Below are positions 2,244 through 13,250 of a stretch of DNA of 13,250 bases, piece by piece; position 1 is the first letter of the stretch, and each line of letters opens with the position of its first letter. A model generated the notes under the pieces. It saw nothing but the letters and a program-made list of their open reading frames with translations. It had not been told where the DNA came from and did not search any database. Source of the stretch: a virus; the UHGV virus genome UHGV-0070257. The stretch is one strand, 5' to 3'. A program made the translations under genes and the position numbers.

Positions 2244-2572
2244 CATTCGTCCTGAAACTGGCGCGTGAATTTCGCCGCCCGGACTGGCGCGCCATGCTTG
2301 CTGGTATGTCGTCAACGGAATACGCCGACTGGCGAACGTTCTACCAGGACAATTTTTTTAATGATGCGCAACTGGATGCACATTTTTCCTCGCTGATGCA
2401 TATCGTCATTACCGCGCTTGACCCCAAAACCACATCAACCCCTGCCAGCTTCAGCCTGCTTTCACCTTCTGCGGAGGATATTGCCGATGATGAACCTGGT
2501 GACGCTGTGCTGATGGCAAAGGCCGAGGGCATTTCAGGAGGTGTTCGCTATGGCCCAGACGGCAGTGGGTGA
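1836..2572 (+). CDS. T: G-T fusion tail assembly chaperone made by programmed -1 ribosomal frameshift near the end of G
   Basis: The -1 frame relative to G is open from 2207 to stop 2572 (the track shows only its internal-Met part, 2294..2572) and has no ribosome-binding start of its own. It overlaps the start of H. This is the universal G/GT arrangement of long-tailed phages. The shift must occur between 2207 and 2243. Confidence 0.75.
2219..2225 (+). promoter_or_regulatory. candidate -1 frameshift slippery site G_GAA_AAG
   Basis: This is the only A/G-homopolymeric heptamer inside the 37-nt overlap window (2207-2243). It occupies the position equivalent to lambda G_GGA_AAG, differing by one base. 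The A-site Lys codon AAG can re-pair on AAA. Confidence 0.5.
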
Positions 2573-5066
2573 CCTGGTCGTTAACCTTGACGTTAATTCG
2601 TCAAAGTTCAACGAGCAGATGGAGTACGTAAAAAGGCAGTTTAAGCAGACGGGTGACGCAGCGAATGACTCGGCGCTGAAGGTGCAGCAGTCATTTACCC
2701 GCCAGGAGAGCGCCGCGAAGAAGGCCGGCATTTCTGTAGGACAGTACAACGCGGCGATGCGTATGCTGCCTGCGCAGTTTACGGATATTGCCACCCAGCT
2801 GGCCGGTGGGCAGAGTCCGTGGCTTATCCTGCTGCAGCAGGGCGGTCAGGTGAAAGACTCCTTCGGCGGTATTATTCCGACCTTTCGGGCGTTGCTGGGC
2901 ACCATATCGCCGGTGATGGTAGGTGTTGGCGCGCTGGCTGCCGCCACTGGAGCGGTGGTTTACGCCTGGTATCAGGGCTCGTCCACGCTGTCTGATTTCA
3001 ACAAAACGCTGGTCCTGTCCGGTAACACTGCCGGGCTGACCTCAAACCGCATGCTGGTGCTGGCGAAATCCGGCGAGCAGGCGGGACTCACGTTTAACCA
3101 GACCAGCAGCGCGCTGACGGAGCTGGTCAACGCCGGAGTGCGTGCCGGTGCCCGGTTCGATGAGATGAGTCAGGCGGTAGCGAAGTTCACCGATGCGTCG
3201 GGCGTGCCGGTCGACAAGGTGGCAGCGGCATTTGGCAAACTGACGAATGATCCGACTTCAGGCCTTATTGCTATGGCGCAACAGTTCCACAACGTTACCG
3301 CGGAACAGATTGCTTATGTGGCGCAACTGCAGCGTGCCGGGGATGAGGCCGGGGCTCTACAGGCAGCTAATGATGCGGCGACGAACGGTTTTCGCGAACA
3401 GACAAAGAGCCTGCGCGACAATATGGGGTCGATTGAGACTGCTGCCGACAGCCTGAAGCGTGCCTTTAAATCGATGTGGGATGCGGCGCTCGATATTGGG
3501 CGGCCTGACACCACGCAGGAGATGGTTGCCAAAGCGGAAGCGGCCTTTAAGCGGGCGGATGAAATCTGGAATCTGCGTAAAGGTGATTCTTATGTCAATG
3601 ATGATGCGCGCGCCAGCTACTGGAACGATCGGGAGTCTGCCCGCCTTGCACTGGAAATGGCTCAGCAGCAGGCCAGTGTGGCAAAGGCCACTGAGGATAA
3701 CGCCGCCCGCGAGGCAGTGATTGAATCTGACCGCCAGAAGTATGCCGCGCAGGCGCAGTCGAATTATGCAAAGACGCAGACTGCGCTGGAGAAGTACACG
3801 GCCCGTCAGAATGAACTGAACAAGGCGCTGAAAGACGGACGGATCCTCCAGGCTGACTACAACATCAATCTGGAAGCTGCGAAAAAAGAATACGACGACT
3901 CGCTGAAGAAACCCAAAGCCCCTTCAGCGGTAAAAACACCTGCAGGTGTAAAAAGTGTCGATACTGCCAGCGCACAGACGCTGGAGCTGGAGGCGCAGTT
4001 ACGCACTCTGCAGGAGCATAAGAGCATCACGGATACCATCAGCCAGCAGCGGCTGGAATTGTGGAAACAGCAATCCCGCTTTTCGGTGCTGGAAGAGGCC
4101 GCCAAAAAGCGCGCGCTGACCGCCGATGAAAAATCGGTGCTGGCGAACAAAGACGAGGTACTGGCGCGGGCCGAAGTGAATGCCCGGTTGGGCGATCAGA
4201 TTGTTGCCCAGGAACGGTTAAACCGCCTGCAGGACAGCTCGCAGAAGTACGTTACCCAGATTGGGGAGAAAACACGAGCGCTTGTGGCCGGGGGCAGCAT
4301 GAGCAGTCGCGGCGCGCAGCGGCAAAACGAAGAGGCACAGCTGCGGCAGGGCTGGATGAATGCCGGCGGTACGGACACCGATCAGGGTTATCAGAACGAA
4401 CTGGATGCACTGAAGAAATATTATGCCGCGCAGGACGAGCTACGTGGCAACTGGCAGGCCGGGGCGAAATCAGCGTGGGCTGACTATGCCGATTCAGCAG
4501 CTGATGCCTATGGTTCGATGAAGTCCGCTGCTTCAGCCACATTCGATGGTATCAGCCAGAATATGGCCGATATGCTGACGACTGGGAAAGCAAACTGGGC
4601 AGATTTCACCCGTTCCACGTTGTCGATGCTGACGCAGATCCTGATGAAGCAGGCCATGGCTGGCCTGGTCAGTTCTGCCACTTCTGCGCTGGGTTTTGCT
4701 GGCGGTGGTTTTACCGGGACCGGCGGTAAGTATGAGCCTGCAGGTGTGGTGCACCGTGGAGAGTTTGTCTTTACGCAGGAAGCCACCAACCGAATCGGTG
4801 TCGGCAACCTTTATCGCATGATGCGTGGTTATGCGACTGGTGGCCTGGTCGGGGGGAGTGGCGCTGGCGTTGCTTCTCCTTTTGGTGTCAGCGTGTATGC
4901 ACCGGTTTCGGTTACAACAGGCCAGGGGGATTCCGGTCAGCAGAAAGGAAACGGCGATGCGCTGGGGAAAGCCTATCAGCAGGTGATCAACAGTTCCATC
5001 AGGGAAGGTATCACCAGAGAGGTCCGACCCGGAGGCATTATCTGGAATGCAACAAAACAGAGGTAA
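2550..5066 (+). CDS. H: tail tape measure protein, lambda H-like (about 838 aa from ATG 2550)
   Basis: SD AGGAGGT 2536-2542 then ATG 2550; the track start 2541 is a GTG sitting inside the SD. Translation MAQTAVGDLVV...KKAGISVGQYNAAMRMLPAQFTDIATQLAGGQSPWLILLQQGGQVKDSFGG...YAWYQGSSTLSDFNKTLVLSGN...GGFTGTGGKYEPAGVVHRGEFVFTQEATNRIGVGNLYRMMRGYATGG matches lambda gpH as recalled. Confidence 0.95.
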   Translation: MAQTAVGDLVVNLDVNSSKFNEQMEYVKRQFKQTGDAANDSALKVQQSFTRQESAAKKAGISVGQYNAAMRMLPAQFTDIATQLAGGQSPWLILLQQGGQVKDSFGGIIPTFRALLGTISPVMVGVGALAAATGAVVYAWYQGSSTLSDFNKTLVLSGNTAGLTSNRMLVLAKSGEQAGLTFNQTSSALTELVNAGVRAGARFDEMSQAVAKFTDASGVPVDKVAAAFGKLTNDPTSGLIAMAQQFHNVTAEQIAYVAQLQRAGDEAGALQAANDAATNGFREQTKSLRDNMGSIETAADSLKRAFKSMWDAALDIGRPDTTQEMVAKAEAAFKRADEIWNLRKGDSYVNDDARASYWNDRESARLALEMAQQQASVAKATEDNAAREAVIESDRQKYAAQAQSNYAKTQTALEKYTARQNELNKALKDGRILQADYNINLEAAKKEYDDSLKKPKAPSAVKTPAGVKSVDTASAQTLELEAQLRTLQEHKSITDTISQQRLELWKQQSRFSVLEEAAKKRALTADEKSVLANKDEVLARAEVNARLGDQIVAQERLNRLQDSSQKYVTQIGEKTRALVAGGSMSSRGAQRQNEEAQLRQGWMNAGGTDTDQGYQNELDALKKYYAAQDELRGNWQAGAKSAWADYADSAADAYGSMKSAASATFDGISQNMADMLTTGKANWADFTRSTLSMLTQILMKQAMAGLVSSATSALGFAGGGFTGTGGKYEPAGVVHRGEFVFTQEATNRIGVGNLYRMMRGYATGGLVGGSGAGVASPFGVSVYAPVSVTTGQGDSGQQKGNGDALGKAYQQVINSSIREGITREVRPGGIIWNATKQR

Positions 5067-5069
5067 GCA

Positions 5070-5417
5070 ATGGCGATCGAGCATTTTGCGTGGCGGATTA
5101 AAGCATCCAGCCAGCCGACCCTGAAAAGTAAGGATACCGTCCGTACGGCGCAGTTTGGTGATGGCTATAAGCAGGTTTCAGGTGCCGGGCTGAATGATGA
5201 AACGCTAAGTTATGAGTTTTCATTTACCGGCGAACCGCAAACCGTCCGGGATATTTATGCTTTCCTGCGGCGCCATAAGACGAAATCATTTTCGTTTACC
5301 CCGCCAGGCGGTGATCTTGCGCTGTGGCGCGTTGAGGCAGAAAGCCTGCAGCGCGTCACCAAAAGTAAAACAGTGGAAACCGTATCAGCCACCTTTGAAC
5401 AGGCGTTTGCACCATGA
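5070..5417 (+). CDS. M: minor tail protein, lambda M-like (115 aa)
   Basis: RBS GAGG 6 nt upstream; starts 4 nt after the H stop. Motifs FGDGY.Q...AGLN and SF.FTPP parallel lambda gpM as recalled (109 aa). Confidence 0.88.
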   Translation: MAIEHFAWRIKASSQPTLKSKDTVRTAQFGDGYKQVSGAGLNDETLSYEFSFTGEPQTVRDIYAFLRRHKTKSFSFTPPGGDLALWRVEAESLQRVTKSKTVETVSATFEQAFAP

Positions 5418-6169
5418 GCTTAAACAGTGATTATCAGAAACTTGAGCCGGGCAATGTTGTCCGGCTTTTTGATGTCGATGGCACCGCATTTGGTGTTTCC
5501 GACGTTCTCCGCTTCCACGCCCACAATATTGCCCACACTCCCGATGAAATTGCCGCTGCTGGTGGAGATGAAAATAAGCTACCGGCGAAATCGATCTGGT
5601 GGCAGGGGCAGGAATATAAAGCCTGGCCCTGCCAGATAGAGGGAATTGAGACTGCGACCGACGGGACCAGTGCGCAGCCAACGCTCTCGGTCGCTAACCT
5701 GGATAGTTCCATTACGGCGCTGTGTCTTGCTTATGATGACCTGCTGCAGGCAAAGGTCACCATTCATGACACACTGGCGCAGTATCTGGATGCGAAAAAC
5801 TATCCGGAGGGCAACCCGTCTGGGGATCCTCAGCAGGAAAAGCTGAAGGTGTTTTACATAGACGCCAAGAGCACTGAAACCAACGAGGTGGTGGCGTTTA
5901 CGTTGTCCAGTCCGATGGACCTGCAGGGGCTGATGATCCCGACGCGCCAGTTACATTCGCTTTGTACCTGGTGCATCCGTAACAAATACCGCTCCGGTGA
6001 TGGTTGTGACTACGCCGGAACTCGCTATTTCGACAAACTTAATAATCCTGTTACCGATCCTTCGCGCGATGAATGTAACGGCACGCTCACCGCGTGCAAA
6101 TTGAGGCATGGCGAGGGGAACGAGTTGCCGTTCGGTGGTTTCCCTGGCACATCCCTGATCAGGAGTTGA
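5414..6169 (+). CDS. L: minor tail protein, lambda L-like (251 aa) with C-terminal Cys cluster
   Basis: ATGA overlap with the M stop. Motifs WQGQEYKAWPCQIEG, TSAQPTLSVANL, DPQQEKL, CTWCIRNKYRSGDGCDYAG, CKLRHG and FGGF correspond to lambda gpL as recalled, including the cysteines of its iron-sulfur site. Confidence 0.9.
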   Translation: MSLNSDYQKLEPGNVVRLFDVDGTAFGVSDVLRFHAHNIAHTPDEIAAAGGDENKLPAKSIWWQGQEYKAWPCQIEGIETATDGTSAQPTLSVANLDSSITALCLAYDDLLQAKVTIHDTLAQYLDAKNYPEGNPSGDPQQEKLKVFYIDAKSTETNEVVAFTLSSPMDLQGLMIPTRQLHSLCTWCIRNKYRSGDGCDYAGTRYFDKLNNPVTDPSRDECNGTLTACKLRHGEGNELPFGGFPGTSLIRS

Positions 6170-6170
6170 T

Positions 6171-6881
6171 ATGCGTCAGAAAATTATCGACGCCATTATG
6201 GCGCATGCCGCTTCTGAATATCCCCGCGAATGCTGCGGCGTAGTGGTGCAAAAAAGCAGGGTGCAGCGGTACATTCCTTGCCGTAATCTGGCAACCGATC
6301 CGACAGAGCATTTCCACCTGTCGCCGGAAGATTATGCCGCTGCCGAAGACTGGGGAACAGTGATTGCCATTGTCCACAGTCACCCGGACGCAACGACACA
6401 GCCGAGCGAACTGGATAAGGCACAGTGTGACGCTACGTTACTTCCGTGGCATATCCTCAGCTGGCCGGAGGGGGATCTGCGTACCATTCAGCCGCGGGGC
6501 GAGTTGCCGCTACTTGAGCGCCCATTTGTGCTCGGTCATTTCGATTGCTGGGGGCTGGTGATGAGCTATTTCCGGCAAACGCATGGCATTGAGCTGACGG
6601 ATTACCGCGTGGATTATCCCTGGTGGGAAGACAGTTATCCCGAAAACTTCTACCACGATTGCTGGTATGAATGCGGATTCCGTGAATTCAGTGGCGTACC
6701 GCAGCCAGGTGATATGGTTATCATGCAGGTCCAGGCCAATAAGTGGAATCACGCGGGAATTCTACTGGAAGGTAACATGCTGTTGCATCACCTGTATGGG
6801 CACCTCAGCCAACGTGTGCCATACGGCGGCTACTGGCAAGAAAGAACAATGAAGGTACTTCGCTATAAGACTCTAGCTTAA
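6171..6881 (+). CDS. K: tail assembly protein, lambda K-like (236 aa) with JAB/MPN metalloprotease and NlpC/P60 motifs
   Basis: RBS AGGAG; start overlaps the L stop (TGATATG). JAMM-type motif E...HSHPDATTQPSELD and Cys/His pair (DCWGL ... HAGILL) seen in the translation. About 37 aa longer than lambda gpK (199 aa). Confidence 0.88.
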   Translation: MRQKIIDAIMAHAASEYPRECCGVVVQKSRVQRYIPCRNLATDPTEHFHLSPEDYAAAEDWGTVIAIVHSHPDATTQPSELDKAQCDATLLPWHILSWPEGDLRTIQPRGELPLLERPFVLGHFDCWGLVMSYFRQTHGIELTDYRVDYPWWEDSYPENFYHDCWYECGFREFSGVPQPGDMVIMQVQANKWNHAGILLEGNMLLHHLYGHLSQRVPYGGYWQERTMKVLRYKTLA

Positions 6882-6887
6882 GCCCAT

Positions 6888-7331
6888 TTAGGTGGACTGT
6901 TCCCCTGGAATTTCCACCCCAAAACCATCCGCATCCCAAGTCTTTTCCCAGACTTCGTAACCTAACTCTTTTAGGCGACTAAAAGTTTTTTTGAAAACAG
7001 TGTTGAAATCATCGTCACTAAGTCCGTCCAACTCAAGATCGCTGAGATGAATATGGAATGTGGAATGACCAATCCGTACCTTTTTGTTGATCTCTGAAAA
7101 AGTCCTTTTGAATATTATTTCAGAGAGTTCATCCCTCGCTTTTTCAACAAGTTGAATTGCATCTTGAGCAGAAATTACTTCATCTTCACGTAATTCGCTA
7201 AGGAAGCTGTTGTCGAGACGTTGAACTATTTCAGCATTCATAGAGCGGTTATTGGATTTTGCTGCATCTTCAATTTTTTCTTTTAATTCAATTGGTAATC
7301 TTATTCTTAGTTGAGGATCTTCTCTGCTCAT
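6888..7331 (-). CDS. Arc/Mnt-family ribbon-helix-helix DNA-binding protein with about 100 aa acidic C-terminal extension of unknown function (147 aa)
   Basis: N-terminus PQLRIRLPIELKEKIEDAAKSNNRSMNAEIVQRLDNSF fits the Arc/Mnt RHH pattern (beta strand with alternating residues, then N-[SA]-E-I-[VY]-Q-R helix), by pattern recognition only. RBS GAGG 7 nt upstream of the ATG on the minus strand. Convergent with K, 6 bp apart. Confidence 0.75.
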   Translation of the reverse strand: MSREDPQLRIRLPIELKEKIEDAAKSNNRSMNAEIVQRLDNSFLSELREDEVISAQDAIQLVEKARDELSEIIFKRTFSEINKKVRIGHSTFHIHLSDLELDGLSDDDFNTVFKKTFSRLKELGYEVWEKTWDADGFGVEIPGEQST

Positions 7332-7366
7332 TTGGTTGCCTCACTCAAAAAGTTCACATTATGTAA

Positions 7367-7440
7367 ATTATGCCCCACGGTGGGGTTGACATCAATGACG
7401 CACGGTGTGACACTTTATGTGTCCCACCGTGGGGCATAAT
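7367..7440. promoter_or_regulatory. divergent promoter/operator region: two inverted copies of ATTATG-CCCCAC(G/C)GTGGGG, overlapping back-to-back promoters
   Basis: Arm 1 (7367-7385, attatgccccacggtgggg) and arm 2 (7422-7440, tcccaccgtggggcataat) are reverse complements at 18/19 positions, and each core is itself near-palindromic. Leftward promoter: -35 TTGATG (minus strand of 7390-7395), 17-nt spacer containing box 1, -10 CATAAT (minus strand of 7367-7372). Rightward promoter: consensus -35 TTGACA 7386-7391, 17-nt spacer, extended -10 TGtGACACT 7406-7414, which would place box 2 at the transcript start. Confidence 0.6.
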
Positions 7441-7450
7441 TGGAGGGGTT

Positions 7451-7618
7451 ATGGAAAAAGCTAAAGATATGTACCAGCGTAAGGTTCGATTTCCTGAAGA
7501 TGTCCGGTTGGCGATAGAGAGAAATGGGGAAGATGAGTGCCGTCAGTTCAATACTGAGCTCATCTATCAGTTGAGGAAAGCGTACGGATTAGAAGGGGGG
7601 AAGAGTGAACAAGCATAA
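7451..7618 (+). CDS. small Arc-like ribbon-helix-helix repressor (55 aa)
   Basis: SD GGAGGGG 7442-7448 then ATG 7451. Translation MEKAKDMYQRKVRFPEDVRLAIERNGEDECRQFNTELIYQLRKAYGLEGGKSEQA is comparable in size and pattern to P22 Arc (53 aa; RWP...NSEIYQR). The track start at 7370 would place the operator boxes inside the ORF and is rejected. Confidence 0.65.
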   Translation: MEKAKDMYQRKVRFPEDVRLAIERNGEDECRQFNTELIYQLRKAYGLEGGKSEQA

Positions 7619-7625
7619 AAACAGT

Positions 7626-7660
7626 GAAACCCAGGAGTGCGCGAACACCCTGGGTTTCTT
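7626..7660. terminator. perfect 10-bp stem-loop (GAAACCCAGG - 13 nt loop - CCTGGGTTTC) with U-rich flanks on both strands; candidate bidirectional terminator/attenuator
   Basis: Read directly: 7626-7635 is the exact reverse complement of 7649-7658. It is followed by TT on the + strand and by ACTGTTTTTAT on the - strand. It lies between the Arc-like gene stop (7618) and the first ATG of the next gene (7692). Confidence 0.45.
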
Positions 7661-7691
7661 ATCGAAGAAATCCTTGGCAGGAAATATCGAC

Positions 7692-8273
7692 ATGAACAGT
7701 GTAACGAAAGAAGAGCTGAACTTCCATGGCATTTCTCTGCAGCCGGCTCCTGATATCGATGGCATCTGGCTGACCGCTAATCAGATTGGTTACGCGCTTC
7801 AATATGCAGACGATAAAGCTGTTCAGCGAATTTTTGCTCGTCATATTGATGAGTTTACAGAAAAAATGACAAGGGTGGTCAAGTTGACCACCCCTGGTGG
7901 GCATCAGGAAACTAGGGTTTTTTCTCTACGTGGCGCACACATGGTCGCTATGTTTGCCAGAACTCCGGTTGCTAAAGAATTCCGACACTGGGTGTTAGAC
8001 ATTCTGGACCGTGAGGTATCTATTAACTTTCCAGTACCGAAGATGCTCAGCGATCGAGAAGTCCACGCCCACAATGCAAACGCAATGTTCGATTATTTCG
8101 AGATTATGTGTGAAGCATGGTTTAACCAGATAGAGCCAGCGTTGAGGGCGATTGAGTCTCCGCTCGCAGGCCGTCTTCACGATCGTTTCAATGATGGGGC
8201 CGCGTTTATGTACATGATTAAGACTCATGCTGAACTACAGCTTCAGGAAGGAGAAAGGCCAAGAATCTACTGA
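7692..8273 (+). CDS. antirepressor-like protein with Bro-N/AntA-type N-terminal domain (193 aa from ATG 7692; alternative GTG start 7605 gives 222 aa)
   Basis: Segment NFHGISLQPAPDIDGIWLTANQIGYALQYADDKAVQRIFARHIDE...PGGHQETRVFSLRGAHMVAMFARTPVAKEFRHWVLDIL fits the phage antirepressor N-terminal domain pattern (F.F...GE.W..A..I...L... ending F..WV). Family call is pattern-based, not searched. Start is ambiguous: GTG 7605 has a G-rich SD but puts the 10-bp hairpin inside the ORF. Confidence 0.6.
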   Translation: MNSVTKEELNFHGISLQPAPDIDGIWLTANQIGYALQYADDKAVQRIFARHIDEFTEKMTRVVKLTTPGGHQETRVFSLRGAHMVAMFARTPVAKEFRHWVLDILDREVSINFPVPKMLSDREVHAHNANAMFDYFEIMCEAWFNQIEPALRAIESPLAGRLHDRFNDGAAFMYMIKTHAELQLQEGERPRIY

Positions 8274-8296
8274 ATTTGCAATGCTGCAAATAGAAA

Positions 8297-8320
8297 AGCC
8301 GATAGTTAGGGCTATCGGCT
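8297..8320. repeat. perfect 9-bp inverted repeat AGCCGATAG-TTAGGG-CTATCGGCT between the two antirepressor-like genes
   Basis: Read directly. No T-tract follows, so it is more likely a protein-binding palindrome or RNA processing/stability hairpin than an intrinsic terminator. Confidence 0.4.
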
Positions 8321-8350
8321 ATCCATAAATCTGTCATAAGGGTCCAACCA

Positions 8351-9094
8351 ATGACTTCATTAAATTTAGCAGTAAATAGCGCTAATGTCACCGAGAAAAC
8401 CATTGATAGCCAGTACTTGCTGGAGATGGTGAATGCTGCGCGAAAGCAATGCGGTGAGCCGGCTGTCCGAAATAACAAGTTCATTGAGAAGGTTGTTGAT
8501 GAGCTTGAAGGGGAGACCTACACAAAAAGTGTAGGTCGTAAAAATGGTCAAGACATTGAAGTAATTACAATGTCTATCAAGCAAGCCCTCCGAGTAGCCG
8601 CTCGTGAATCGAAAGCCGTTCGACGTTCTCTGGTTGATAAGCTGGAAGATATGCAGGTATTACCAGCGATGCCAAAAAGCAACACAGGTATCACTGAGTA
8701 CCGATTGGCTAAGGCAGAACAGTTGAAAGCCCAGGCATTGGAGAAGAATATCGCGAGCGCGCGGGAAATCATTACTCTGCTTCCTAGATTGGATCCGATG
8801 GCACATCAGGTGCTCACGGCATCGTTGATTAATCCGCTTATTGGTTATGACGCCATCCCGTTACCTGTTATCGAGGAGCATTACCACACTGCGAGTGAGG
8901 TGGGGGAGATGCTGGGGGTTTCTGCTCAGAAAATTGGACGCGTTGCTAACACACACAAGCTGAAGACAGAAGCGCATGGCAAGTTCTTTCTGGACAAGTC
9001 GGCCTACTCAAGTAAACAGGTTGAAGCGTTCCGGTACAACACTAACGGAATTGATGCGTTGCGCCATCTGATTCATGGTGCTGATGTGGCATAA
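8351..9094 (+). CDS. phage antirepressor/regulatory protein, Rha-like N-terminal region and KilAC-like C-terminal domain (247 aa)
   Basis: RBS AAGGG. N-terminal TIDSQYLLEMVNAARKQCGEPAVRNNKFIEKVVDEL resembles the Rha-family pattern. C-terminal HYHTASEVGEMLGVSAQKIGRVANTHKLKTEAHGKFFLDKSAYSSKQVEAFRYNTNGIDAL resembles the Ant/KilAC C-terminal domain. Pattern-based assignment. Confidence 0.6.
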   Translation: MTSLNLAVNSANVTEKTIDSQYLLEMVNAARKQCGEPAVRNNKFIEKVVDELEGETYTKSVGRKNGQDIEVITMSIKQALRVAARESKAVRRSLVDKLEDMQVLPAMPKSNTGITEYRLAKAEQLKAQALEKNIASAREIITLLPRLDPMAHQVLTASLINPLIGYDAIPLPVIEEHYHTASEVGEMLGVSAQKIGRVANTHKLKTEAHGKFFLDKSAYSSKQVEAFRYNTNGIDALRHLIHGADVA

Positions 9095-9127
9095 ATTTCA
9101 AAGCAGTTAAAATGTTTTTGCTATCCC

Positions 9128-9155
9128 AACCCGCTTAACTGCGGGTTTTGTCGTT
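9128..9155 (+). terminator. intrinsic terminator candidate (AACCCGC-TTAACT-GCGGGTT then TTGTCGTT)
   Basis: 7-bp stem and 6-nt loop followed by a T-rich run, 34 nt after the stop of the 8351..9094 gene. Confidence 0.5.
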
Positions 9156-9204
9156 ACCGGATCCCTGCTACTCTTTTGGCAAATTAATCAAAGGTGATAG
9201 GGAT

Positions 9205-9630
9205 ATGAAAAAGACTTTGCTGCTTCTAATTGCGCTTAGCGTTGCTGGGTGTTCAACCACGGCGGTGAATTCTACCGTTGCAAAACAAGTACCATCTGAA
9301 CGTGTATTGCTGAAGGGGGCTGGTGACTCGGTGATAACAATTACACGAGATCAAGGATGGTTTGCTGGTGGTGGATGCTTTGTAGAAGTAACTATTGATG
9401 GAAAATCCTATGCAAGAATTGATACGGGAGAAACGATCGATATCAATGTTACATCCGGCCGACATATTCTAGGAATATCTGGCGATTCAAAAGGTAAAGG
9501 ATTATGTGGAATGCAGGTCGGACAACCACTCAAAGAGACTGCCACGCAGATCAATGCTCGTGAACATCAAAAATTCCGCATCACCGGAGATACTAATTCC
9601 GGACTTGATATCAGAGCATCAACCATATAG
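9205..9630 (+). CDS. predicted outer-membrane lipoprotein (141 aa precursor), function unknown; candidate superinfection-exclusion or host-interaction moron
   Basis: ATG 9205 with SD AGGTGA upstream. Signal peptide MKKTLLLLIALSVAGC with lipobox L-S-V-A-G-C and Ser at +2 (no Lol-avoidance Asp). Two further Cys in the mature part. The track start 9148 is a TTG upstream of the signal peptide and is rejected. Confidence 0.75.
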   Translation: MKKTLLLLIALSVAGCSTTAVNSTVAKQVPSERVLLKGAGDSVITITRDQGWFAGGGCFVEVTIDGKSYARIDTGETIDINVTSGRHILGISGDSKGKGLCGMQVGQPLKETATQINAREHQKFRITGDTNSGLDIRASTI

Positions 9631-9650
9631 TTCGAGTCATTTTATAAATG

Positions 9651-9675
9651 GCCACCTCCGGGTGGCTTTTTTATT
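9651..9675 (+). terminator. intrinsic terminator (GCCACC-TCCG-GGTGGC then TTTTTTATT)
   Basis: Perfect 6-bp GC-rich stem, tetraloop and T-tract, 20 nt after the lipoprotein stop and immediately before the gene I RBS. Confidence 0.75.
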
Positions 9676-9685
9676 GGAGAAGAGT

Positions 9686-10276
9686 ATGCAGCAAGAAGTT
9701 ATGACCCAAATTGAACTGAGCGGGATTCTTGGCAAAACCTTTGGTAAGACGCATCATCGTTTAATTAGCTCAACCCGAGAAGCCTGTCGAGCGCTAGCTG
9801 CAACAGTGAAAGGGTTTGAGGCCTTCATGAATTCAAGTAAACAGCGCGGTCTGACATATGCAGTTTTTCGAGGAAAGAAAAATATTGGGGAAGATGATTT
9901 AGGCTTTCCGGCGACAGGTGAAGTGATCCGGATCGTGCCAGTAGTTATTGGTAGTAAAAAAGCTGGCCTGTTACAAACCATATTAGGTGCCGTCCTTGTT
10001 GTAGCTGGCTACGCTTTGTCAGGTTTTACTGGCGGTGCAAGTATGGCATTGGTCGCACCCGGTGTTGCATTAATGGCTGGAGGCGTAATCCAAATGCTTT
10101 CGCCACAGCCAGCAGGACTTGCCAGCAAACAGGATGCCGAAAATCGGGCTTCGTATGCATTCGGTGGTGTAACTAACACTGCTGCTCAGGGTAATCCAGT
10201 TCCGCTTCTATACGGACGCAGGCGTATTGGCGGGGCGATCATCTCTGCTGGTATATACGTCGAAGACCAGCAATAA
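9686..10276 (+). CDS. I: tail assembly protein, lambda I-like (196 aa)
   Basis: SD GGAGAAG then ATG 9686. Translation ...GEVIRIVPVVIGSKKAGLLQTILGAVLVVAGY...GGVIQMLSPQP...GNPVPLLYGRRRIGGAIISAGI parallels lambda gpI as recalled (...IHIVPRVAGAKSGGVFQIVLGAA...GGVAQMLAPK...QGNVLPVLYGEMRVGSRVVSQEI). The track start 9506 overlaps the lipoprotein gene and the terminator and is rejected. Confidence 0.85.
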   Translation: MQQEVMTQIELSGILGKTFGKTHHRLISSTREACRALAATVKGFEAFMNSSKQRGLTYAVFRGKKNIGEDDLGFPATGEVIRIVPVVIGSKKAGLLQTILGAVLVVAGYALSGFTGGASMALVAPGVALMAGGVIQMLSPQPAGLASKQDAENRASYAFGGVTNTAAQGNPVPLLYGRRRIGGAIISAGIYVEDQQ

Positions 10277-10296
10277 CAAAATAATCTTCCTTTCAG

Positions 10297-10320
10297 GCTA
10301 CCTTATGGTGGCTTTTTTTA
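10297..10320 (+). terminator. terminator-like hairpin (GCTACC-TTAT-GGTGGC, one G-U pair, then TTTTTTTA) between I and J
   Basis: Its 3' arm plus T-tract (GGTGGCTTTTTTT) nearly duplicates that of the 9651-9675 terminator. Confidence 0.4.
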
Positions 10321-10330
10321 TGGGCGCAAT

Positions 10331-13250
10331 ATGGCTACAGCAATCCCGATTAAAGGCCGCAAGGGCGGCAGTTCCAGTTCACGAACCCCTACCGAACAGC
10401 CTGATGATCTGCAATCTGTAGCGAAGGCCAAAATCCTCGTTGCGCTTGGGGAAGGGGAATTTGCAGGGCAATTAACCGGAAAAAATATCTACCTGGACGG
10501 CACGGCGTTGGAAAACTCCGATGGCACCAAAAACTTTAGCGGCGTGACGTGGGAATTTCGCGCGGGAACTCAGGCACAAAATTACATTCAGGGCATTCCC
10601 GGTACCGAAAACGAAATCAACGTTGGAACTGAAGTATCAAGCGCAACAGCCTGGACGCGTACTTTCACCAACACCCAACTATCAGCCGTTCGCCTGCGAC
10701 TGAAATGGCCTTCTCTGTTTAAGCAGGAGGACAACGGCGATCTGGTAGGGTATTCCATCAATTATGCAATAGACCTGCAAACTGATGGTGGGACCTGGCA
10801 AACCGTTCTTAATACCAGCGTAACCGGCAAAACGACGTCTGGTTATGAGCGCAGCCACCGTATTGATTTACCGCAGGCTGGCAGCACCTGGACAATCCGA
10901 CTGCGTAAGATTAACGCTGACGCAAACAGCGCCAAGATCGGCGACACGATGACGCTGCAAAGCTTCACGGAGGTGATTGATGCCAAGTTGCGCTATCCGA
11001 ACACCGCGCTGCTGTACATCGAATTCGACTCAAGTCAGTTCAATGGTTCGATTCCACAGATATCCTGTGAACCACGTGGCCGGGTGATCCGAGTGCCTGA
11101 TAACTATGACCCCGATACGCGGACTTATAGTGGTACATGGCAGGGCGCGTTTAAGTGGGCCTGGACCGATAACCCGGCGTGGATATTTTACGATCTGGTT
11201 ATTACCGATCGCTTTGGTCTGGGTAATCGCCTGAGTGCAGCCAACATCGATAAATGGACGTTGTACCAGGTATCGCAGTATTGCGATCAGCCGGTACCGG
11301 ATGGAAAGGGTGGAAGCGGGACAGAGCCACGCTATACCTGTAACGTCTATGTTCAGGACAGGAATGACGCTTACACTGTGCTGCGTGACTTTGCGGCTAT
11401 ATTCCGGGGTATGACGTACTGGGGCGGTGATCAGATTGTTGCGCTTGCCGATATGCCGAGAGATGTGGATTACGCTTACACCCGCGCTAACGTTATCGAC
11501 GGACGCTTTACCTATTCCAGCAGCACGACAAAAACGCGGTATACCACCGCGCTGGTTTCCTGGTCTGATCCGGGTAACGCTTATGCGGATGCGATGGAGC
11601 CAGTATTTGAGCAGCCTCTGGTGGCCCGGTACGGATTTAATCAGCTGGAAATGACAGCCATCGGTTGTACCCGTCAATCAGAAGCGAACCGAAAGGGGCG
11701 CTGGGGTATTCTCACCAACAATAAGGATCGTGTTGTTTCGTTTGATGTTGGCCTGGACGGAAACATTCCGCAGCCGGGATACATCATCGCCGTGTCAGAC
11801 GAGCTTCTGTCCGGCAAAGTTATGGGTGGCCGCATCAGTGCTGTTAACGGTCGCGTGATAAAACTTGACCGCGTAGTTGATGCAGCAGCAGGCGATCGCC
11901 TTATTATCAATCTTCCCTCCGGTGCGTCACAGAGCAGGACTATTCAGGCGATTAATGGGGAATCAGTCACAGTCACCACGGCATACAGTGAGACACCACA
12001 GGCCGAAGCTGTATGGGTGGTTGAGTCAGATGAACTCTACGCCCAGCAGTATCGAGTTGTCAGCGTCTCCGATAATGATGATGGCACTTTCTCTATTACC
12101 GGCGCATGGCATGACCCGGATAAATATGCCCGTATCGATACCGGAGCCATCATTGACCAGCGGCCCGTGAGTGTAATCCCGCCTGGTAACCAGTCGCCGC
12201 CGGCTAACATTGTGATCAGCTCGTTTTCAGTGGTGCAGCAGAATATCAGCGTCGAAACCATGCGTGTGAGCTGGGACCAGGCGCAGAATGCTATCGCCTA
12301 CGAGGCACAGTGGCGCCGCAATGATGGTAACTGGGTAAACGTGCCGCGCAGCTCCACCACCTCATTTGATGTATCGGGTATTTATGCCGGGCGCTACCTC
12401 GTGCGTGTGCGTGCCATTAATGCCGCTGAAATTTCCTCTGGCTGGGGCTACTCCGAAGAGAAAACGCTGACGGGCAAGGTGGGAAATCCACCGAAACCTG
12501 TCGGCTTTGCGACAACGCCGATCAACTGGGGGATTCGCCTGAACTGGGGATTCCCGGCTAACACCGGGGATACGCTGAAAACGGAAATTCAGTACACCGC
12601 GAACAGTGATTTCTCTAATCCTCTATTGCTGTCGGATGTGCCTTATCCGTCAGCCGAATACACCCAACTGGGACTGAAGGCGGGACAGGAGTTCTGGTAC
12701 CGCGCGCAGCTGGTTGACAGAACGGGTAATGAATCAGGCTGGACCGACTGGGTTCGTGGTGTATCCAACGCGAATGCTGACGACTACCTGGGCGATATTG
12801 CTGATGACTTCCTGACGTCTGCAGACGGTGACCGCCTGACAGGCGACATTGATACCAACCTCGAAGCCGCATGGCAGAACGCGCTGGCCAACCATGCAAC
12901 CGTGGAACATCAGTGGGCGCAGTACGGCGAGGTACGCGCGGATATTCTGGTGGTTAAAACGACCATTGCGCAGGTCGATAAGGCCATGGCTGAAATGTCG
13001 ACGCAGGTGAAGGCGCAGTTCAATAATGTAACTGCCGCACTGGAGGACAAGCTTACTGCCGTGGTTGATGCTACCGGAGCCTCTGCGATTTACACCCTCA
13101 AAACTGGGGTCCGGATTAACGGTGTGATGTATAACGCCGGAATGTCGATTGCGGTGCTGGCGGAGGCGGGTAAGCCGGTAGTCACTCGTGTCGGATTTAA
13201 CGCCAATCAGTTCGTCCTGATGAGTGGCAGCGGTGATACGCAATATTCAC
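10331..13250 (+). CDS. J: host-specificity / central tail fibre protein, lambda J-like, N-terminal about 973 codons (3' end beyond window)
   Basis: ATG 10331 opens a frame with no stop to the window edge; it is absent from the ORF track because it has no stop in the window. Hand translation MATAIPIKGRKGGSSSSRTP...RYPNTALLYIEFDSSQFNGSIP...RVPDNYDPDTRTYSGTWQG...YCDQPVPDGKGGSGTEPRYTCNVY... parallels lambda gpJ as recalled. Fibronectin-III-like repeats at about 12180-12770 (...RVSWDQAQNAIAYEAQWRRNDGNWVNV...YLVRVRAINAAEISSGW...). Confidence 0.9.
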   Translation, partial: MATAIPIKGRKGGSSSSRTPTEQPDDLQSVAKAKILVALGEGEFAGQLTGKNIYLDGTALENSDGTKNFSGVTWEFRAGTQAQNYIQGIPGTENEINVGTEVSSATAWTRTFTNTQLSAVRLRLKWPSLFKQEDNGDLVGYSINYAIDLQTDGGTWQTVLNTSVTGKTTSGYERSHRIDLPQAGSTWTIRLRKINADANSAKIGDTMTLQSFTEVIDAKLRYPNTALLYIEFDSSQFNGSIPQISCEPRGRVIRVPDNYDPDTRTYSGTWQGAFKWAWTDNPAWIFYDLVITDRFGLGNRLSAANIDKWTLYQVSQYCDQPVPDGKGGSGTEPRYTCNVYVQDRNDAYTVLRDFAAIFRGMTYWGGDQIVALADMPRDVDYAYTRANVIDGRFTYSSSTTKTRYTTALVSWSDPGNAYADAMEPVFEQPLVARYGFNQLEMTAIGCTRQSEANRKGRWGILTNNKDRVVSFDVGLDGNIPQPGYIIAVSDELLSGKVMGGRISAVNGRVIKLDRVVDAAAGDRLIINLPSGASQSRTIQAINGESVTVTTAYSETPQAEAVWVVESDELYAQQYRVVSVSDNDDGTFSITGAWHDPDKYARIDTGAIIDQRPVSVIPPGNQSPPANIVISSFSVVQQNISVETMRVSWDQAQNAIAYEAQWRRNDGNWVNVPRSSTTSFDVSGIYAGRYLVRVRAINAAEISSGWGYSEEKTLTGKVGNPPKPVGFATTPINWGIRLNWGFPANTGDTLKTEIQYTANSDFSNPLLLSDVPYPSAEYTQLGLKAGQEFWYRAQLVDRTGNESGWTDWVRGVSNANADDYLGDIADDFLTSADGDRLTGDIDTNLEAAWQNALANHATVEHQWAQYGEVRADILVVKTTIAQVDKAMAEMSTQVKAQFNNVTAALEDKLTAVVDATGASAIYTLKTGVRINGVMYNAGMSIAVLAEAGKPVVTRVGFNANQFVLMSGSGDTQYS

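Follow-up and report, generated by a model that had tools for sequence, protein, structure and literature searches.

Two hairpins bracketing a tail assembly gene

The stretch of viral DNA considered here (13,250 nucleotides, nt, of genome UHGV-0070257, called the window below) carries a lambdoid tail operon, in which a large island of extra DNA separates the tail tip gene K from the tail assembly gene I (Table 1). Gene I is bracketed by two hairpins, one lying between the lipoprotein gene that ends the island and I itself, the other between I and the host specificity gene J. Quite probably, these hairpins are rho-independent terminators that close two accessory slots, K-I and I-J, stopping unmodified RNA polymerase, while polymerase modified by a Q-type antiterminator would cross them.

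The pre-I hairpin (stem GGCCACC/GGTGGCT, 9650-9667) has seven pairs and the loop TCCG, with a folding energy of -13.2 kcal/mol, and it runs into six T residues at 9667-9672, followed by ATT up to 9675. It begins 20 nt past the stop codon of the lipoprotein gene, and a single nucleotide separates its end from the Shine-Dalgarno sequence GGAG of I (9676-9679), whose start codon is at 9686. The pre-J hairpin (AGGCTACC/GGTGGCTT, 10295-10314) is made of eight pairs, two of them G.U, around the loop TTAT (-10.7 kcal/mol); its onset is 19 nt past the stop codon of I, and its tract of seven T (10313-10319) stops 11 nt short of the start codon of J at 10331. What is expected of intrinsic terminators is found at both sites, namely a G+C-rich stem, a short loop, a T run, an intergenic position after a stop codon and compensatory changes in relatives, and the ribosome-binding sites of I and J are left unpaired in the folds. 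The original prediction, made from the sequence alone, had placed terminator-like hairpins at 9651-9675 and 10297-10320, the former directly upstream of the ribosome-binding site of I. Both are recovered as strict terminators, at 9650-9675 and 10295-10319, and the 1-nt separation confirms the adjacency.

The definition used matters. In a strict scan of both strands, which required six or more uninterrupted stem pairs, an energy no higher than -8 kcal/mol and T6 directly after the stem, only these two sites are hit in 13.25 kilobases (kb), and 200 dinucleotide shuffles gave a mean of 0.035 hits, with no shuffle reaching two. By contrast, a loose scan returned 17 hits over the whole window against 13.7 expected, which is no enrichment, so that the real sites are set apart by the strict definition only.

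Table 1. Genes and other features of the window, in order of position (aa, amino acids).
Feature	Position	Strand	Remarks
Lambdoid tail operon	13.25-kb window	+	head-tail and tube genes first, then tape measure, M, L, K, island, I, J
Tape measure gene	2541-5066	+	
Gene M	5070-5417	+	
Gene L	5414-6169	+	
Tail tip gene K	6171-6881	+	JAB plus NlpC/P60 domains; left border of island
Island between K and I			2.8 kb; K-I gap of 2804 nt
immI-like antirepressor module	6888-9094	mixed	left-hand 2.3 kb of island
Mnt/Arc-like repressor gene	6888-7331	-	Pfam Arc 3e-14
19-nt perfect inverted repeat	7366-7384 and 7423-7441		divergent control region between Mnt-like and Arc-like genes
Arc-like gene	7451-7618	+	55 aa; Pfam Arc 0.004
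Candidate sar-like antisense RNA	7623-7690	-	across ant ribosome-binding site; Rfam RF00262, full-length 1-68
Ant-like antirepressor gene	7692-8273	+	Bro-N 6e-9; PHROG 'anti-repressor Ant' 5e-32
Second anti-repressor gene	8351-9094	+	
Terminator-like hairpin closing the antirepressor operon	9128-9155	+	stem 9128-9147, tail TTTTGTCGTT
Lipoprotein gene	9205-9630	+	141 aa; PHROG 890 'lipoprotein' E = 6e-43; right-hand island unit
Predicted intrinsic terminator before I	9650-9675	+	after lipoprotein gene; abuts I ribosome-binding site
Tail assembly gene I	9686-10276	+	196 aa; PHROG 32 'tail assembly protein' E = 8e-76
Predicted intrinsic terminator between I and J	10295-10319	+	I-J gap here contains terminator only
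Linker ATGGGCGCAAT	10320-10330	+	11 nt, nearly invariant; T-tract to J start; holds J ribosome-binding region
Tail tip / host specificity gene J	10331-13250	+	continues past window end

Conservation across related loci

Comparison was made with a family set of 110 loci encoding relatives of I, drawn from species-representative genomes and from IMG/VR, the loci compared spanning I proteins of 66-100% identity. The K-I gap is occupied in nearly all relatives, where it measures 320-3000 nt. A hairpin with its T-tract stands directly ahead of the I ribosome-binding site at all 88 loci that have a K-I insert, and the pre-I hairpin is missing at four loci that have none, K and I being adjacent or overlapping there (L076, L077, L078 and L080). 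Before J, the hairpin and a T-tract (T6-T8) are present at 100 of 100 related loci, which represent 66 distinct sequences; T6-T8 is counted in 64 of these 66. The distance between T-tract and J start is exactly 11 nt in 62 of the distinct sequences, and the linker nearly always reads ATGGGCGCAAT. This linker also holds an out-of-frame ATG 11 nt ahead of the J start, with a weak Shine-Dalgarno match. At about 75% of the loci the I-J gap is 50-63 nt long and holds the hairpin only; at about a quarter of them it extends to 370-730 nt, with one or two small genes and the same kind of hairpin at the end.

The stems vary in a compensatory way. Their cores read CCACC/GGTGG, CCGCC/GGCGG, CCTCC/GGAGG, GGTCGC/GCGGCC or GCCGC/GCGGC, depending on the locus. 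Over three alignments, 83-90% of the cells at paired positions can pair, whereas sliding the partner brings this down to 27-63%, or to 80% for one partial slide; site by site, the figures are 83% against 34-63% before I, and 86-90% against 27-60% before J, where the partial slide at 80% belongs, and two of the three alignments were anchored on predicted loops, which biases them toward structure. Changes on both sides are seen in four of eight stem pairs, and the covariation score was reached in none of 500 shuffles; the number of pairs changed on both sides is, on its own, not above that of shuffles. Six Citrobacter chromosomal copies keep both hairpins, with variable loops.

Sequences just upstream of the hairpins are biased as well. 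From the I stop codon to the pre-J hairpin (10277-10294 in the window, about 20 nt), G makes up 3.4% over 50 distinct spacers, against 28% in the window; the sequence upstream of the pre-I hairpin is A/T-rich instead. Judging from base composition, it seems more likely that the depletion of G keeps other partners away from the C-rich 5' arm of the terminator, as would fit selection against rival folds.

Transcription of I and J

Upstream of I there is a gap of 55 nt, and upstream of J one of 54 nt, both entirely taken up by spacer, hairpin, T-tract and ribosome-binding site, and a promoter scan of the window found no promoter-like site in either of them. As there is no room for a promoter, polymerase can reach I and J only by way of the terminators at 9128, 9650 and 10295, all on the plus strand and within 1.2 kb. 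The expectation that late transcription has to pass several terminators on its way to I and J thus stands for these three sites; it falls for a hairpin at 7626-7658 that had been counted with them, and that probably belongs to a sar-like RNA of the minus strand.

The late regulatory region lies beyond the window, and it was approached through close relatives with backbones about 96% identical to that of the window, by following them upstream. A relative contig with the same type of island (L096, L132, L201) has a K protein 98% identical to that of the window, a Mnt-like one 98.6% identical and an Ant-like one 94% identical. On L201, a Q-family gene (Pfam Antiterm PF03589, E = 6e-47) is located just upstream of holin and lysozyme genes, and this Q region is about 21 kb upstream of I in the relative. 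Next come the sequence TTGACA-16-TATGTT at 3074-3101 and, at 3496-3517, a hairpin of nine pairs whose tail is rich in T; the holin gene is at 3642, with terminase further on, and promoter and hairpin are putative, as consensus matches. Altogether, the interval 3074-3517 holds a late-promoter-like site plus two hairpin terminators right after the Q gene. Further down the late operon, in the head-gene region about 2 kb upstream of the tail genes, L132 has a canonical terminator at 8114-8131 (AAGCCGCCTTCGCGGCTT+T6), and further canonical terminators are found along the late operon of that relative. Such a layout is the usual one of lambdoid phages, and it agrees with the moron model. Polymerase modified by Q crosses terminators over tens of kilobases in phages lambda, 82 and 21. 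By analogy with these phages we infer, on what appear to be sound grounds, that Q-modified polymerase would read through the terminators of the window, as the original prediction had reasoned in proposing Q-type antitermination.

The scheme that we favour would operate as follows. The terminator at 9650 would end the lipoprotein gene, which normally resides between K and I, and the one at 10295 would be the standing terminator of the I-J slot, empty in the window phage. Together with the hairpin at 9128, they would halt unmodified RNA polymerase ahead of I and J, this polymerase possibly coming from the antirepressor promoter of the island or from stray promoters. During late lytic growth, Q-modified polymerase from the late promoter about 21 kb upstream would ignore all three, and I and J would be expressed as members of the late operon. 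In this scheme actual termination, its efficiency and read-through by Q are what we infer from the features just described. Papers on the HK022 lysogen and on transcriptomes of Salmonella prophages contained nothing on these sites.

Several points weigh against this scheme. The Q gene was detected in a relative rather than in the window or the genome to which the window belongs. The pre-J hairpin of the window has a modest z-score (-1.5) and two G.U pairs. The pre-J terminator is retained at loci that have no I-J gene, and also at those that have no K-I insert (L078, L080); being kept in the absence of any accessory gene, it is not simply the own terminator of a moron, as accessory genes of this kind are called. 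For the lipoprotein gene, no sigma-70 promoter was found, whether at the 3' end of K or within the 57-nt gap (window, L092 and L034), so that the picture of a moron as promoter, gene and terminator does not fully apply.

The persistence of the pre-J terminator may be given a different meaning. With its T7 tract and its ATGGGCGCAAT junction, it could be a selected, permanent part of the tail-tip module, acting as a standing insulator ahead of J and providing a 'safe harbour' immediately upstream of itself, or else setting the dosage of J. This idea is possible, if somewhat doubtful; a harbour permitting insertion without turning J on would explain why accessory genes have built up repeatedly at these two sites. 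If it were true that the I-J terminator predates the accessory genes, there would be a mechanistic reason for moron hot spots.

Other explanations of the hairpins

Hairpins placed in this way might act mainly at the RNA level, in a read-through late mRNA where termination would be incidental. They would then be 3' stabilisers after processing, or U-rich translation enhancers or insulators setting the amounts of lipoprotein, I and J. The constant distance from T-tract to J start, with its nearly invariant linker, hints at a coupling with translation initiation; the ribosome-binding sites stay unpaired, no promoter belonging to the lipoprotein unit is detectable, the pre-J hairpin persists without a neighbouring accessory gene, and relatives have such a hairpin, with T6, at another place of the late operon too, as described for L132. 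Yet stability hairpins need no perfect T6-T8 right after the stem, whereas the tract is almost invariant here, and a near-invariant U-tract argues for termination over mere stability. Pairing of the spacer with the J ribosome-binding site, considered as a translational coupling device that would sequester the latter, was rejected: a first measure looked positive, but the helix failed against the proper control, with 3.69 expected pairs between spacer and linker against 4.54 for random and 4.30 for shuffled spacers. We regard a role confined mainly to RNA as unlikely. Still less credible are relics of lost accessory genes, or chance hairpins with no present function. To be fair to the first of these, deletion of the 370-730 nt insert that about a quarter of the relatives have between I and J could leave its terminator behind. 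A relic would decay, however, and 100 of 100 loci keep hairpin and T-tract, with compensatory stem changes, among I proteins that are as little as 66% identical; as for chance, it would provide 0.035 such hairpins per window. Hardly any weight can be given to either.

The sequence shared by the two sites was also seen by the original prediction as a duplicated arm, marking perhaps the recombination joints of a mosaic. It could indeed be a linker for recombination, or have been left by a duplication, at the joints where the I cassette or the island is exchanged. The motif GGTGGCTTTTTT has exactly two copies in the window, even with one mismatch permitted, where 0.10 are expected, and the two sites are alike over 28 nt (79% identity), which makes this the longest direct repeat in 6800-10400. 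Family-wide, a CCACC-type hairpin with a TTTTTTTATGG tail is found at both sites, and homology between phages with differing K-I inserts starts about at the hairpin. These similarities do not, however, tie the two sites of a given phage to each other. When pre-I and pre-J hairpins were compared within each of 58 distinct phages, their likeness scored 6.57; the null gave 5.98 +/- 0.40, with 152 of 2000 permutations doing at least as well. Both sites have an identical 5-nt core arm in 15 of the 58 phages, with 12.6 expected (about p = 0.2). The CCACC core is simply the most frequent type before I and before J (26/58 and 25/58). This non-significant permutation test speaks against a duplication specific to the window phage, likeness within phages being no higher than likeness between phages.

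As to the joints themselves, the comparison with related phages was carried out by change-point mapping of sharp identity shifts. It yields eight independent sharp joints in the I/J region, of which six are within the 3' third of I (10091, 10121, 10132, 10165, about 10229 and 10253 in window coordinates), one is in J and a single one, between L062 and L104, falls at the J start codon, in favour of a linker. The joints of the window phage itself are at about 10226 against L092 and at about 10132 against L033. With six of the eight inside I, the idea that the hairpins or the duplicated motif mark mosaic joints is not supported. Base composition and the edge of the insertion tell the same story. 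Between about 6800 and about 10000, G+C content is 38-50%, K, L and J having 51-58%, and this low block takes in the 5' two-thirds of I and ends within the gene, near 10000; that part of I therefore travels with the lipoprotein gene and its terminator. The antirepressor insertion, for its part, ends near 9172, away from the hairpin. A recombination linker is thus highly improbable, and rho-independent termination at the border of accessory slots is the reading that we retain. Joints between related phages cluster at 10090-10260, in the 3' third of I, which is conserved.

The island: an antirepressor switch and a lipoprotein gene

Two units make up the island. On the left, the antirepressor module looks like the immI region of phage P22. 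Its Ant-like protein matches P22_AR_C weakly, at 3e-4, under the cut-off. In the divergent control region, the arms of the inverted repeat (AATTATGCCCCACGGTGGG and CCCACCGTGGGGCATAATT) each overlap a CATAAT -10-like hexamer, and they are probably a pair of operators. A promoter-like site of the minus strand, 7395-7367 before the mnt-like gene, was returned by the scan; the plus-strand candidate was recognised by eye only. The sar-like RNA scores 31.2 bits in the window (E = 0.0057), under the gathering score of 43 for RF00262. At the same position, L095 and L083 give 34.3 and 31.1 bits, with compensatory stem changes, both again below 43.

This RNA bears on the nature of the hairpin at 7626-7658, a very stable one (-21 kcal/mol, z = -5), which the original prediction had listed as a terminator to be passed by late transcription of the plus strand. 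There is no U-tract on the plus strand, and since the sar-like match is on the minus strand, the hairpin would be the 3' terminator stem of the sar-like RNA. The companion claim, of a hairpin at 9128-9155, was right. With its tail, the 9128-9147 stem is a plausible terminator of the plus strand; it is kept in L110, and another hairpin takes its place in L083. Two further observations concern the minus strand. At 8297-8320, just past the Ant-like stop codon, a stable hairpin has a T-rich tail on that strand, and no T-tract on the plus strand; it could halt antisense transcription coming into ant from the right. The Mnt-like gene is convergent with K and ends 6 nt from the K stop codon. On the minus strand no strong terminator comes after it, so that in a lysogen its transcript would continue into K in antisense orientation.

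The module entered the operon between the final K codons and the ribosome-binding site belonging to the lipoprotein gene, its right edge near 9172 being about 480 nt upstream of the pre-I hairpin. A remnant of the K end, TGCTACTCTTTTGGCAAA, lies near 9172-9190 and resembles the K stop region TGCTAACCTTTTGCAAA of relatives that have no antirepressor module, a likeness that we read as the insertion footprint; the last K codons (6865-6881) are altered in island-bearing phages. In the Citrobacter chromosomes L271-L276, the gene content of the module varies, the lipoprotein is identical and the I gene has the same length; the layout given there by a gene caller agrees with the gene order of the module. 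This variation resembles the flux described for the 'ant moron' of P22 (PMC2629481).

On the right, the lipoprotein has no match in Pfam or in NCBIfam. Homologues with 25-100% amino acid identity fill the K-I slot in 62 loci, and since this gene is a resident of the slot, the pre-I hairpin is to be seen as its terminator. In relatives, the gene begins about 30 nt past the K stop codon. Being a neighbour of J, the receptor-binding gene, it may have a role in receptor blocking or in exclusion.

Comparison with known systems

Terminators at these positions have been annotated before. The HK75 record has them before I and between I and J, the HK97 record has 'putative' ones at both places, and the HK446 record has the pre-I one, while the HK022 and HK97 records label genes in these gaps as 'moron' products. 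The feature and its positions being already annotated in phages of the HK97 group, its novelty is low. Likeness is closest with HK75, which has GGCCACCTTCGGGTGGC+T6 before J, AAACCACCTACGGGTGGTTT+T8 before I, and the same TTTTTTATGGGCGCAATATG junction with J as the window; its pre-J hairpin (GGCCACCTTCGGGTGGC+T6+ATGGGCGCAATATG) is nearly identical in sequence to the two of the window. More generally, HK97, HK75, HK446 and the mEp phages (Hendrixvirinae) have their two terminators placed as in the window with respect to K, I and J, with the same type of hairpin. The window differs from them in its K, I and J, where identity is only about 80%, in being a Citrobacter prophage with a tail shaft like that of N15 and mEp237, and in having a K-I slot occupied by a lipoprotein gene and a 2.3-kb antirepressor module rather than by a small gene of the gp20/YebO type.

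Morons were reportedly described by Juhala and colleagues in 2000. Like them, the island is extra DNA of deviating G+C content (38-50% against 51-58%) between otherwise adjacent genes, K and I, with factor-independent terminators (9128 and 9650), the latter at its end. However, the published definition includes an own promoter as well as a terminator (PMC3594210), whereas the lipoprotein unit has no detectable promoter, the I-J terminator stands without a gene and the low-G+C block enters I.

The immI region of P22 (mnt-arc-sar-ant) resembles the island of the window in its divergent Arc-family repressors, its antirepressor and an antisense RNA over the ant ribosome-binding site, for which the window has a sar-like candidate, and also in its place within the late operon, with distal tail genes that need read-through right after it. 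In P22, the 'ant moron' of the late operon has an effect on the frequency with which late transcription gets as far as the tailspike gene (PMC2629481). The differences are that the window phage is a siphovirus with HK97-type K-I-J, not a P22-like podovirus, that its Ant has Bro-N and only a weak P22_AR_C match, that there is a second anti-repressor gene, and that the sar match is under the gathering score. As for lambda, its arrangement PR'-qut-tR' has a counterpart in the close relative, in which a promoter-like site and a putative terminator come after the Q-family gene and before lysis, head and tail genes, several intrinsic terminators lying inside the operon. In lambda, K, I and J are contiguous and are not known to have terminators between them, and here the window differs.

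The reach of all this is limited. Terminator-closed K-I and I-J slots are extended from a few Escherichia coli phages to about 100 prophages, with Citrobacter, Kluyvera, Atlantibacter, Erwinia and others as hosts. For annotation and engineering, inserts in these slots would be insulated from I and J unless polymerase is Q-modified, and the island is better described as a P22-style antirepressor switch with a sar-like RNA than as a series of plus-strand terminators.

Origin of the window and its tail genes

The window is a prophage of Citrobacter freundii and its relatives, with a K-I-J tail-tip module of the HK97 type. The exact sequence of the island lipoprotein is present in 464 blocks of public assemblies, including chromosome CP011657 (Citrobacter freundii CAV1741), where the prophage lies around 752.5-762.9 kb, which makes this a common Citrobacter prophage. 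Named phages and complete E. coli genomes provided no close match, K, I and J being only about 80% identical and the island not being present there. DNA identity in these three genes is about 80% with the HK97/HK022/HK75 group, and the tail shaft genes are about 76% identical to those of N15 and mEp237. The product of I reaches E = 1e-4 with Pfam Lambda_tail_I, marginally short of the cut-off; J matches FNIII-A_GpJ of Pfam at 3e-50, and also Phage-tail_3 and Phage_Tail_Tip. Well upstream of the island, the 5' end of gene L contains another hairpin of the plus strand (5444-5467, 10 pairs, about -16 kcal/mol), followed by TTTGATG, which is kept in the relatives L131 and L132.

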